Notes: generated by a model not told the origin, from the letters alone. A stretch of 32,000 nucleotides of DNA from Amycolatopsis sp. CA-128772 (GCF_002904295.1 NZ_PPHG01000085.1:22047-54046); one strand, 5' to 3'; shown: positions 24,141-26,000, numbered from the stretch's first letter. Numbers and translations: made by a program.

Positions 24141-26000
24141 ATGGACATGACGGATCCCAGCGCAGCCCCGCTCGACCTCGGCGCCATTCGCGAGCTCATC
24201 GAGGACGAGGAGGACGAAGCGGCCGAAATGCTGCACCTGACGGCGAACGAGACCGTGCTTTCGCCGCTCGCGCGGACCGTGCTCGCGAGCGAGCTCGGCC
24301 CCCGCTACCTCCTGGAACACCTGGACATGCGCCAGGATTCGCCGTCCCGGCTCAACAACCTGCTCTACCACGGGCTGGACCGGGTGAACCGGATCGAACG
24401 GTCCGCCACCGAGGTGTGCCGCCGCCTCTTCGGCGGCGGTTACGCCGAATTCCGCTGCCTTTCCGGGCTGCACGCCATGCAGACGACCTTCGCCGCGCTC
24501 ACCCGGCCCGGCGACAAGATCATGCGCATCTCCACCAAGGACGGCGGGCATTTCCTCACCGAGCTCATCTGCCGGGGTTTCGGACGGCGAAGCTGCACCT
24601 ACGCCTTTCGGGACATCAGCGAAATCGACCTGGCCGCGACCGAGCGGGTATTCCGCGAAGAACGGCCGTCCCTGCTCTACATCGACGCGATGAACTACCT
24701 CTTCCCCTTCCCCGTGCGCGAGCTGAAGGAAATCGCCGGTGACGTCCCGCTGATCTACGACGCCTCGCACACCCTCGGGTTGATCGCCGGCGGGCGGTTC
24801 CAGTCCCCGCTGGCCGAGGGGGCCGACATCCTGCAGGCCAACACCCACAAGACGTTCTTCGGCCCGCAGAAGGGCCTGATCGTCGGACGCGAGCGCGGGC
24901 CGATGGAACGGATCGGCTACACGCTGTCGAACGGGATGGTCAGCAGCCAGCACACCGCGTCCACGCTGGCGCTCTTCGTCGCGCTGCACGAGATGTACGC
25001 GGTCGGGGAGGTCTACGCCGACCGCGTGCTGCGCAACGCGAAACGCCTCGCGACCACCCTCGACCGGCTCGGCGTGCCGGTGCTGGCCAAGGACCGCGGG
25101 TTCACCGGCAACCACATGTTCTTCGTCGACACCCGGCCGCTCGGCGGCGGGCCGCCGTTGCTCGAGCGGCTGCTGGCCGCCGGGATCTCGGTGAACCGCG
25201 GGGTCGCGTTCGAGCACGTGGACGCGCTCCGGCTCGGCGTCCAGGAGATCACCCGGCGCGGGGCGGACGAGGACGACATGGACCTCATCGCCCGCTGGAT
25301 CGCCGGCATCCTGCTCGGCACGGCGGAACCCGAAGACATCCGCCCGCTCGTCCGCGCCTTCGTCGGCCGCCACCGCGAAGTCCACTTCACCGGGGACGCC
25401 GGCGTGGCCCCGCCGGCGCGCCGGAAACCGCCGGAGCGCACCGGTTTCCGCCCGAGCCGGCGCTGGGCGGAGATGTCCCTGCGGCGGGAGCCGCTCGACC
25501 ACTCCGCCCACCGGCCGGAGCTGGCCCGGGCGAAGGAGCTCGGCCGGCTGGGCGGGGAGTTCGCGCACCAGACCGATTCCGCGGGCAACGTGAGCTTTTC
25601 CGCCGGGGGCCGGCTCTACGTTTCGGCCAGCGGCGCCTACATCAAGGACCTGGCGGACGACGACTTCGTCCTGGTGGAAGGGGCCGGCGACGGCGTGCTC
25701 CGCTGCCTCGGCACCGGCCCGGCCTCGGTCGAGGCGTACCTGCACCACCTGCTGGCCGAGCGGTTCGGGGCGGCGTACGTCGTGCACAACCACTACATCC
25801 CGGACGCCGACCTGACCCGGCTGGGGGTCAGCGTGATCGATCCCCAGGAGTACGGCAGCGTCGCTTTGGCCACCGCGGTGGCCAAAGCGGCCGGAGACAC
25901 CAAGAAGATCTACGTCCGGCGGCACGGGCTGGTGTTCTGGTCGGAATCCTTCGACGAGATCCGCGACCTCGTCACCGGCACGGCCGCCGCGACGGGCTGA
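24141..26000 (+). CDS. 4-fluorothreonine transaldolase (PLP SHMT-like domain fused to a class II aldolase/epimerase-like domain)
   Basis: 619 aa. The N-terminal ~430 aa resembles SHMT-fold PLP enzymes (LHLTANETVLSP, CLSGLHAM, PLIYDASHTLGL, ANTHKTFFGPQKG with the putative PLP Lys). After a Pro/Arg-rich linker comes a class II aldolase/adducin-type domain (NVSFS..GRLYVSASG, PASVEAYLHHLL, AAYVVHNHY, YVRRHGLVFWSESFDE). This two-domain architecture matches the S. cattleya / Streptomyces sp. MA37 fluorothreonine transaldolase as I recall it. An alternative start is ATG 24147. Confidence 0.85.
   Translation: MDMTDPSAAPLDLGAIRELIEDEEDEAAEMLHLTANETVLSPLARTVLASELGPRYLLEHLDMRQDSPSRLNNLLYHGLDRVNRIERSATEVCRRLFGGGYAEFRCLSGLHAMQTTFAALTRPGDKIMRISTKDGGHFLTELICRGFGRRSCTYAFRDISEIDLAATERVFREERPSLLYIDAMNYLFPFPVRELKEIAGDVPLIYDASHTLGLIAGGRFQSPLAEGADILQANTHKTFFGPQKGLIVGRERGPMERIGYTLSNGMVSSQHTASTLALFVALHEMYAVGEVYADRVLRNAKRLATTLDRLGVPVLAKDRGFTGNHMFFVDTRPLGGGPPLLERLLAAGISVNRGVAFEHVDALRLGVQEITRRGADEDDMDLIARWIAGILLGTAEPEDIRPLVRAFVGRHREVHFTGDAGVAPPARRKPPERTGFRPSRRWAEMSLRREPLDHSAHRPELARAKELGRLGGEFAHQTDSAGNVSFSAGGRLYVSASGAYIKDLADDDFVLVEGAGDGVLRCLGTGPASVEAYLHHLLAERFGAAYVVHNHYIPDADLTRLGVSVIDPQEYGSVALATAVAKAAGDTKKIYVRRHGLVFWSESFDEIRDLVTGTAAATG

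Follow-up and report, generated by a model that had tools for sequence, protein, structure and literature searches.

The 32,000-nucleotide (nt) stretch of DNA from Amycolatopsis sp. CA-128772 analysed here (NZ_PPHG01000085.1:22047-54046), hereafter the window, carries the complete gene set of a fluorometabolite cluster in an Amycolatopsis-like actinomycete. Within this cluster, the open reading frame (ORF) at 24141-26000 almost certainly encodes an orthologue of 4-fluorothreonine transaldolase (FTase), comprising (i) an N-terminal S domain, a pyridoxal 5'-phosphate (PLP)-dependent transaldolase of the serine hydroxymethyltransferase (SHMT) fold with Lys237 in its active site, and (ii) a C-terminal A domain, which adopts the class II aldolase fold in short form and retains the complete Glu/His3 site. 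The function of the A domain, and in particular its candidacy as an aldolase acting on 5-fluoro-5-deoxyribulose-1-phosphate (5-FDRulP), is the subject of this analysis. The gene and its parts are given below with E. coli FucA (PDB code, 1FUA) as the structural reference; conservation counts refer to a set of 95 full-length didomain homologues (45-93% identity to the window FTase) and, where indicated, to 107 stand-alone relatives of the A domain.

24141..26000, + strand: FTase/FlFT orthologue, 619 residues plus stop, ATG start, TIGR04506 equivalog
24186..25364, + strand: S domain, residues 16-408, predicted PLP-dependent SHMT-fold L-threonine transaldolase (Pfam SHMT, structural matches)
24849..24851, + strand: Lys237, predicted PLP Schiff-base lysine, T-H-K-T motif, at least 90% conserved in the 95 homologues
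25371..25460, + strand: interdomain linker, about residues 411-440, poorly conserved by identity, predicted local distance difference test (pLDDT) 68-72
25461..25997, + strand: A domain, residues 441-619, starting at the invariant R441-W442 strand and built on the class II aldolase fold in short form (Pfam Aldolase_II)
25584..25595, + strand: G482-N483-V-S485, matching FucA G28-N29-V-S31 (phosphate-site asparagine loop), kept in 95/95, 94/95 and 93/95 FTases and in 107/107 stand-alone relatives
25623..25634, + strand: S495-A-S497-G498, matching FucA T41-P-T43-G44 (phosphate-site turn), Ser or Thr at 497 in 93/95, G498 invariant
25722..25733, + strand: A528-S529-V530-E531, matching FucA P70-S71-S72-E73, with A528 and V530 derived and E531 the canonical metal-bound catalytic Glu
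25785..25793, + strand: H549-N-H551, matching the FucA zinc ligands H92 and H94, both 95/95
25848..25859, + strand: E570-Y571-G-S573, in the FucA T130-F131-G-T133 columns, E570 in 94/95, Y571 in 90/95, S573 in 95/95
25923..25928, + strand: H595-G596, matching FucA H155 (zinc ligand) and G156, 94/95 and 95/95

The ORF is taken as a real gene because its third-position guanine-cytosine (GC) content, 0.91, matches the expectation for a window of 70% GC. TIGR04506, the NCBIfam equivalog model of fluorothreonine transaldolase, matches residues 12-614 with 991.4 bits against a cutoff of 650, Pfam SHMT covers residues 16-387 (E = 1.4e-25) and Pfam Aldolase_II matches the C-terminal domain (E = 1.4e-12), three assignments that lie far beyond chance. 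The closest genome match is an Amycolatopsis melonis protein of 91% identity, and the S. cattleya FTase shares 64%. The best structural matches of the S domain are the M. jannaschii SHMT (4uqv), followed by the threonine transaldolase ObiH (7k34), and the motif ANTHKTFFGPQKG (residues 233-245, nt 24837-24875) holds the SHMT-type Schiff-base K237. The corresponding lysine of the enzyme from Streptomyces sp. MA37 (FTaseMA) carries the same number, and its K237A mutant retains 13.1% of the activity (PMC7162832). By analogy, the S domain is predicted to convert L-threonine and fluoroacetaldehyde into 4-fluorothreonine and acetaldehyde, a reaction so far demonstrated with two enzymes, those of S. 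cattleya and MA37 (PMC7162832), both of which display the same succession of SHMT-fold S domain, linker and class II aldolase-like A domain. The single-domain L-threonine transaldolases ObiH/ObaG and LipK share the fold of the S domain and the reaction type, but contain neither an A domain nor a metal (PMC8072733). The protein belongs to a known family whose two-domain architecture, Zn site and missing-aldolase puzzle are already in the literature; new from the present analysis are (i) the origin of the A domain among short aldolases coupled to isomerases, (ii) a residue-wise comparison of its competence, (iii) a corrected catalytic Glu, and (iv) the wide spread of didomain FTase-like proteins beyond fluorinase clusters.

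The A domain is under real constraint, since its mean pairwise identity within the family is 47.5% against 23% in residues 411-452, around the linker; the S domain reaches 62.5%. The AlphaFold2 model of the full-length protein has a pLDDT of 92.4 and a predicted template-modelling score (pTM) of 0.90, and that of the C-terminal domain alone a pLDDT of 95.2; no solved FTase structure was found in the PDB by sequence or by fold. A profile built from 27 C-terminal domains and compared with solved structures retrieves FucA as the best match (E = 5e-12, 49 bits), followed by the weaker matches DrdA (1e-7) and MtnB/APIP (4m6r, 1.3e-3), and a Foldseek search with the model of the domain places the FucA family on top, with template-modelling (TM) scores of 0.65-0.69 and E values down to 5e-11.

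The profile alignment with FucA (same fold, TM 0.65-0.67; about 20% identity) discloses a common metal centre and most of the phosphate-site residues. The columns correspond as follows: T26 to S480, G28 to G482, N29 to N483, S31 to S485, T43 to S497, G44 to G498, S71 to S529, S72 to V530, E73 to E531, H77 to H535, F131 to Y571, and the zinc ligands H92 to H549, H94 to H551 and H155 to H595. E531, H535, H549 and H551 are kept in 95/95 homologues, N483, S529 and H595 in 94/95, and S485 in 93/95. Of the columns that bind the phosphate of dihydroxyacetone phosphate (DHAP) in FucA, N29, T43/G44 and S71 are represented by N483, S497/G498 and S529 at about 99% conservation, whereas the S72 column is Val in the window FTase and Ser in only 44% of the FTases. 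Besides this substitution, the A domain differs from FucA by Tyr in place of F131, by an extra N-terminal strand (R441-W442) and by its fusion to a PLP enzyme. The initial annotation had described an SHMT-like PLP domain with a putative Schiff-base Lys fused to a class II aldolase-like domain with a metal-site pattern formed by the Glu of PASVEAY (residues 527-533) and the His residues of VVHNHY (547-552) and RRHGLVF (593-599); all the motifs it quoted are present. The domain profiling with hidden Markov models (HMMs) that it suggested recovers both SHMT and Aldolase_II, and the chance it had raised, that the histidines might not align with class II zinc ligands, is answered by the profile alignment, in which E531, H549, H551 and H595 all fall on FucA E73, H92, H94 and H155.

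The reading of the metal centre bears on the published mutants. FTaseMA binds Zn in a 1:1 ratio in a form that resists ethylenediaminetetraacetic acid (EDTA), the mutants H551A, H598A and N484A retain 14.5%, 18.1% and 27.7% of the transaldolase activity, respectively, and E573A is unstable (PMC7162832); all the residues probed there are present in the window FTase (K237, N483, H549/H551, E570 and H595). The mutant activities sit at about the assay floor, because the Schiff-base mutant K237A keeps 13.1% in the same assay. The Glu573 of FTaseMA corresponds to E570 in the window FTase (25848-25850), which follows the HxH pair and occupies the FucA T130 column, whereas the equivalent of the canonical FucA E73 and DrdA E76 is E531 (25731-25733), 18 residues before the first His. 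On this alignment, the equation of Glu573 with DrdA Glu76 in the MA37 paper is mistaken and the canonical Glu, the equivalent of E531, appears never to have been mutated. The authors (Wu et al. 2020) proposed that the A domain dehydrates fluoroacetaldehyde hydrate, neither this dehydration nor 5-FDRulP being assayed there (PMC7162832); the initial annotation had described this work as finding the C-terminal domain mainly structural, which is at odds with the catalytic role for which the paper argued. A literature search, in which subscription journals were perhaps incompletely covered, found no paper assaying any FTase A domain on a ketose-1-phosphate, and a 2026 genome-mining paper on tRNA deacylases does not mention the A domain.

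The closest relatives of the A domain outside the FTases are found in a large family of stand-alone proteins of about 190 residues (175-205; P0133-P0273), which score 70-108 bits with the A-domain profile compared to 49 for FucA. Word-indexed homologue searches with the C-terminal domain, alone or as a profile, gave fragments only, and it was an exhaustive profile search over 1.84 billion representative proteins that recovered the family. Its members share the short architecture of the A domain, since the alignments are nearly gap-free, and display an N-terminal E-x-Y-x-G-x-K-F strand followed by invariant GN-S, PSSE-H, H-x-H, YG[TS] and HG motifs. The N-terminal strand, the Y-G-[ST] motif and the invariant metal and phosphate residues are common to both groups; the stand-alone proteins differ by having no PLP domain, by keeping R, S and Y at the FucA R33, S72 and Y81 columns, and by lacking Q477, D479 and E570. 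None passes the cutoff of a named NCBIfam model, and several score best with the C-terminal portion of the model for FTase itself. Loci of three members were sampled (L018:6001-6588, L020:5001-5594 and L021:5001-5594), two of which show translational coupling to IF-2B/MtnA isomerase genes: P0135 (195 residues) stands in an overlapping operon of phosphorylase, aldolase and IF-2B/MtnA isomerase, the phosphorylase being of the nucleoside type, and P0136, in an archaeal context, overlaps the upstream IF-2B/MtnA gene by 4 nt; the third, P0133, lies on a contig too short to show its context.

Because two of the three sampled stand-alone proteins sit in operons with MtnA-type isomerases, we infer that the A domain descends from aldolases of the ribulose-1-phosphate type. 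Ald2, of the DHAP shunt (EC 4.1.2.62), and DrdA from B. thuringiensis (6BTG) are class II aldolases paired with MtnA-type isomerases that cleave the isomerase products, 5-substituted ribulose-1-phosphates, into DHAP and an aldehyde X-CH2-CHO, the chemistry that 5-FDRulP requires (PMC10986504, PMC6079011), and the haloarchaeal ribulose-1-phosphate (Ru1P) aldolase forms DHAP and glycolaldehyde from ribulose-1-phosphate (PMC9700705). DrdA resembles the A domain in structure (TM 0.67) as well as in profile, and the clustering of Ald2 and DrdA genes with those of an MtnA-type isomerase and of a phosphorylase or kinase whose substrate is a 5'-deoxynucleoside or sugar recalls the window, in which the FTase gene likewise adjoins the MtnA gene in a cluster with an MTAP-type phosphorylase. 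On the other hand, Ald2, DrdA and Ru1P aldolase are stand-alone enzymes of about 205-220 residues with demonstrated activity, DrdA being a tetramer, whereas the A domain is shorter and fused and only a candidate aldolase. The gene order around P0135 and P0136 matches that of the DHAP shunt and of 5-deoxyribose salvage, of which the fluorometabolite pathway may, by analogy, represent a fluoro version with the same logic.

The alignment of the 107 stand-alone relatives with the 95 FTases discloses which parts of the ancestral site have been kept. Nineteen positions are at least 90% conserved in the stand-alone proteins, and 13 of these are also at least 90% conserved in the FTases, among them all metal ligands and the Glu, the counterparts of N29 and S71, and the Y-G-[ST] Tyr; Tyr occupies position 571 in 98/107 stand-alone proteins, and Glu at 570 is FTase-specific. 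Pro at 528 occurs in 91/95 FTases and 107/107 stand-alone proteins, and residue 530 is Ser in 44% of the FTases versus 103/107. The FTases have invariants of their own in the active-site loops (Q477, D479, P568 and E570), missing in the stand-alone proteins, and the site therefore appears kept at its core and remodelled around it. Distant members of the FTase family (P0061, P0062 and P0097) retain the ancestral R, PSSE and Y, FTases of Streptomyces, Nocardia and Actinoplanes have PSAE and R539, and the Amycolatopsis/Actinopolyspora clade, including the window FTase, has diverged furthest, carrying a residue other than Arg at 487 (Ser in the window), ASVE and A539. Relative to the S. cattleya and MA37 enzymes, P, S/A, R/Y and R have given way in the window clade to A528, V530, A539 and S487, respectively.

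The cluster around the FTase gene supplies the phosphorylase and the isomerase of the pathway without a separate aldolase. The genes comprise:

12705..13583, - strand: MTAP-type nucleoside phosphorylase, candidate 5'-fluoro-5'-deoxyadenosine (5'-FDA) phosphorylase FlB (TIGR01694 302 bits against a cutoff of 275; Pfam PNP_UDP_1 1.5e-44)
13830-15272, + strand: S-adenosylhomocysteine (SAH) hydrolase
15495..16391, + strand: fluorinase, adenosyl-fluoride synthase (TIGR04507 equivalog, 594 bits against a cutoff of 400)
within the cluster: Na+/H+ exchanger
about 18080-19273, + strand: S-adenosylmethionine (SAM) synthetase (MetK)
19277-19846, + strand: adenine phosphoribosyltransferase (APRT)
within the cluster: two LuxR-type response regulators, the second at 20804-21568, + strand
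21319-21909, + strand: DUF190 protein
21917..22987, - strand: FthC-like EamA exporter (Pfam EamA 5e-29)
22951..24084, - strand: MtnA-type isomerase, candidate 5-fluoro-5-deoxyribose-1-phosphate (5-FDRP) isomerase and divergent neighbour of the FTase gene (TIGR00512 salvage_mtnA 370 bits against a cutoff of 279; Pfam IF-2B 9e-66)
26002..26574, - strand: FthB-like trans-acting aminoacyl-tRNA deacylase, convergent with the FTase gene (Pfam tRNA_edit 4.6e-20)

The partners of the known fl clusters, fluorinase, phosphorylase, isomerase, FthB and FthC, are the same, the roles of the last two having been described (PMC7162832, PMC9173684). As in MA37, the fluorinase cluster includes the FTase gene, which in S. 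cattleya occupies a separate locus. SAH hydrolase, MetK and APRT around the fluorinase form a set for SAM supply and adenine recycling.

Pfam scans of 30 candidate ORFs found no second Aldolase_II domain in the window, and six-frame searches of the window by tblastn and by a C-domain HMM, which is sensitive enough to detect E. coli FucA at 7e-18, returned the FTase C-terminal domain itself as the sole match; the statement of the initial annotation that no stand-alone gene of the fuculose-phosphate-aldolase type lies in the window is thereby borne out. Likewise, no stand-alone class II aldolase occurs within 10 kb of 14 other FTase genes, among them those of the full fluorinase clusters L012, L014 and L016, or in the FTase surroundings annotated with Pfam, and the FTase gene directly adjoins an MtnA-type isomerase gene in the window, L012, L013 and L016. 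The literature describes the aldolase gene of the pathway as 'still elusive' and reports that no homologue of the fuculose aldolase was found in N. brasiliensis (PMC3999930). The further claim, that the fused domain is the only aldolase candidate, stands as far as the cluster is concerned, which encodes no other; it does not extend to a sole or required source of fluoroacetaldehyde, at least in S. cattleya, where the flFT knockout discussed below still makes fluoroacetate (Zhao 2012, as cited in PMC8072733).

Taken together, these features lead us to favour, tentatively and at somewhat below even probability, a model in which the A domain acts as an auxiliary and redundant aldolase, still able to bind 5-FDRulP and to cleave it so that unhydrated fluoroacetaldehyde arises near the PLP site. 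The domain, descended from small aldolases acting on the 5-substituted ribulose-1-phosphates made by MtnA-type isomerases, would hold the ligand by its phosphate site (N483, S497-G498 and S529) together with the Zn/E531 centre, and a retro-aldol cleavage would release DHAP and unhydrated fluoroacetaldehyde close to the PLP site, with Y571 and E570 possibly standing in for the missing Tyr113 of FucA. Such activity would be redundant with housekeeping class II aldolases rather than the sole route to fluoroacetaldehyde, and may be weakened in the Amycolatopsis clade by S487, A528, V530 and A539. Four features speak for the model: the conservation of the phosphate site, the descent of the domain, the adjacency of the FTase and isomerase genes, and the absence of a separate aldolase gene from every cluster examined.

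A number of observations weigh against this model, chief among them the S. cattleya knockout, the relaxed second-shell positions, most marked in the window FTase, and the A-domain mutants that impair transaldolation from the free aldehyde. S. cattleya extracts reportedly accumulated 5-FDRulP upon addition of EDTA (Onega, 2007), in contrast to the EDTA-resistant Zn of FTaseMA, and the five-enzyme reconstitution (Deng, 2008) reportedly used the fuculose aldolase from S. coelicolor. The in vitro pathway comprised five enzymes including a separate aldolase (PMC8072733). The same paper, citing Zhao 2012, describes fluoroacetate as still made, and as the sole product, after inactivation of flFT in S. 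cattleya; on this account another aldolase therefore supplies fluoroacetaldehyde there and FTase is not essential for it. Moreover, the H551A, H598A and N484A mutants of FTaseMA are impaired in transaldolation from free fluoroacetaldehyde, a drop that an independent aldolase site would not predict.

The remaining points against aldolase activity are structural and evolutionary. The FucA R33, S72 and Y81 columns fall from 92-97% conservation in the stand-alone proteins to 38-44% in the FTases, which suggests relaxed selection on the ancestral activity, and in the window FTase S487, A528, V530 and A539 replace residues that are 92-100% conserved in the stand-alone proteins. FucA residues 95-129 (35 residues, including Tyr113) are reduced to 18 residues (552-569) without a conserved Tyr, so that FucA residues of about 102-118 have no counterpart in the A domain, and neither has the C-terminal tail (171-215, including Tyr209). 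Since the FucA metal and phosphate columns are kept and the Tyr113 loop and the tail are gone, the DHAP half of the site is retained and the parts from the neighbouring subunit that shape the aldehyde side are absent, a difference that is not decisive because the short stand-alone relatives lack both elements as well. Aldolase chemistry cannot be read from a Glu/His3 site alone, since the class II aldolase fold is shared by decarboxylases (YgbL, HMPDC), an epimerase (AraD), a dehydratase (MtnB/APIP) and iron oxygenases (POD, TqaM). Finally, no fluorinase, phosphorylase or isomerase gene was found within 10 kb of the didomain genes at L009, L010, L011, L015 and P0076 described below.

A stronger proposal, which we regard as rather unlikely and somewhat less probable than this model, is that the A domain is the long-missing 5-FDRulP aldolase, FTase being a bifunctional aldolase-transaldolase that would pass unhydrated fluoroacetaldehyde directly to the PLP site. 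The proposal has two variants: (i) a radical one, in which the A domain holds a DHAP enediolate on its Zn and there exchanges fluoroacetaldehyde against the co-product acetaldehyde, and (ii) an extension by analogy, in which didomain proteins outside fluorinase clusters turn other 5-substituted ribulose-1-phosphates into β-hydroxy amino acids.

Also unlikely, and slightly more so, is that the A domain is a structural or regulatory relic, in which the Zn(Glu/His3) centre only holds the fold and the domain serves stability, oligomerisation or the geometry of the PLP domain without turnover. The tight, EDTA-resistant Zn of FTaseMA and the instability of E573A would follow naturally (PMC7162832), and the activities of H551A, H598A and N484A, at 14-28% and close to the 13% of K237A, fit a pattern of global damage (PMC7162832). 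The three stand-alone-conserved positions relaxed in FTases, the four replaced in the window FTase, the lost aldehyde-pocket elements of FucA (Tyr113 loop and C-terminal tail) and the fluoroacetate still made by the flFT knockout (PMC8072733) point in the same direction, and the pTM of the model suggests that the S and A domains pack rigidly against each other. Such a relic, however, leaves unexplained the conservation of about 99% of N483, S485, S529 and G498 among homologues of down to 45% identity, as well as the FTase-specific invariants Q477, D479 and E570 of the active-site loops, and the single-domain threonine transaldolases ObiH and LipK work without such a domain (PMC8072733).

The published model of Wu et al. 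(2020), in which the Zn and a Glu of the A domain dehydrate fluoroacetaldehyde hydrate, or enolise it, and so supply the aldehyde to the PLP domain, is in our estimate improbable. It accounts for the loss of 4-fluorothreonine formation from free fluoroacetaldehyde in the A-domain Ala mutants and for the Zn bound 1:1 (PMC7162832), it accords with the acceptance by FTase of glycolaldehyde, another heavily hydrated aldehyde (PMC7162832, PMC8072733), and E570, their Glu573, is indeed an FTase-specific invariant beside Y571 in an active-site column. The proposal was nevertheless drawn from mutants without a direct dehydration assay, with effects at the floor that K237A sets at 13% (PMC7162832); the Glu assigned as the equivalent of DrdA Glu76 is another residue, the canonical E531 equivalent apparently never having been mutated; the conserved phosphate site is left unexplained; and didomain homologues occur where fluoroacetaldehyde is not expected.

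Least probable among the listed alternatives, and by our estimate very improbable, is the handling of the co-product or an exchange of aldehydes, in which a Zn-bound DHAP enediolate would condense with the released acetaldehyde, pulling the equilibrium, or would swap aldehydes, with the net conversion of 5-FDRulP and L-Thr into 4-fluorothreonine and 5-deoxyribulose-1-phosphate. The conserved DHAP half-site next to a remodelled aldehyde half-site, the reversible joining of DHAP and acetaldehyde by DrdA-type enzymes (PMC6079011) and the stoichiometric release of acetaldehyde by the transaldolase are compatible with this scheme, which is a pure inference set against an FTase that works in vitro without DHAP (PMC7162832). 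What is left of the probability falls to unlisted explanations of A-domain function. An MtnB-type dehydratase role was rejected, as its product does not lead to fluoroacetaldehyde and the profile favours FucA over MtnB (4m6r) by the E values given above; the NCBIfam aldolase and MtnB models all score far below their cutoffs on the window FTase, the best being salvage_mtnB with 29 bits against 137.

The fluorinase pathway is, to our knowledge, the only well-characterised biological route to C-F bonds, and its aldolase step has been without an assigned gene since the intermediate was identified, in vitro reconstitutions using a surrogate aldolase. If the fused domain is the aldolase, fluorinase, phosphorylase, isomerase and FTase would be enough to obtain 4-fluorothreonine from fluoride, and the toxic, heavily hydrated fluoroacetaldehyde need never be free; the ancestry of the A domain offers both a rationale and control enzymes for the aldolase hypothesis. 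If the A domain is inactive, it would provide a clean example of an aldolase active site kept for a non-aldolase role, and one would then have to look for the aldolase of the pathway among the class II aldolases of housekeeping metabolism.

Didomain proteins resembling FTase occur widely beyond the fluorinase clusters. Proteins with SHMT and Aldolase_II domains and 45-55% identity to the window FTase keep all metal and phosphate residues together with the ancestral R, PSSE and Y, and are encoded at the following positions:

L009:2306-4249: Micrarchaeota metagenome-assembled genome
L010:10001-11863 and L011:7498-9360: archaeal-looking contigs
L015:10001-11890: didomain gene
P0076 context: didomain gene

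The database name 'fluorothreonine transaldolase' on such proteins (e.g., the Micrarchaeota P0061 and P0076) is probably an over-annotation. The L009 didomain gene is followed by radical SAM, Beta_elim_lyase and GNAT genes, and a PALP enzyme gene is paired with the didomain gene in L015 and in the P0076 context, the latter also containing CrcB. A stand-alone A domain of 187 residues (P0124; L017:580-1143), with an upstream gene on the opposite strand, nearly equals the C-terminal sequence of the didomain protein P0078. It is either an A domain that occurs naturally in split or independent form, or an artefact of assembly, the contig measuring 2.2 kb.

Other observations concern the surroundings of the FTase genes. 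In the window, a two-domain terpene synthase gene (8051-10378, - strand; 775 residues, Terpene_syn_C_2 9e-110 in two stretches), resembling geosmin synthase, lies about 2 kb upstream of the fluorometabolite cluster, and the ORFs listed for the DUF190 protein and for the second LuxR regulator have about 250 nt in common, read in different frames; the true start codon of the DUF190 gene is probably further downstream, since the DUF190 domain begins only at residue 98. Two metagenomic fluorinase/FTase clusters contain extra threonyl-tRNA synthetase genes (L012:4882-6891 and L014:10164-12188), which may be self-resistance copies that complement the FthB deacylase, and L014 also encodes an FlK-type thioesterase. 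Directly downstream of the FTase gene and upstream of a nucleoside phosphorylase gene, L013:11939-13558 encodes an IF-2B/MtnA isomerase fused to a phosphoribosyltransferase domain (539 residues). The distant FTase locus L016 (48% identity) encodes a longer SAM_HAT protein of 331 residues (L016:6315-7310), which may not be a true fluorinase, and, between the tRNA-editing and FTase genes, a 656-residue protein without a Pfam hit (L016:7844-9814).

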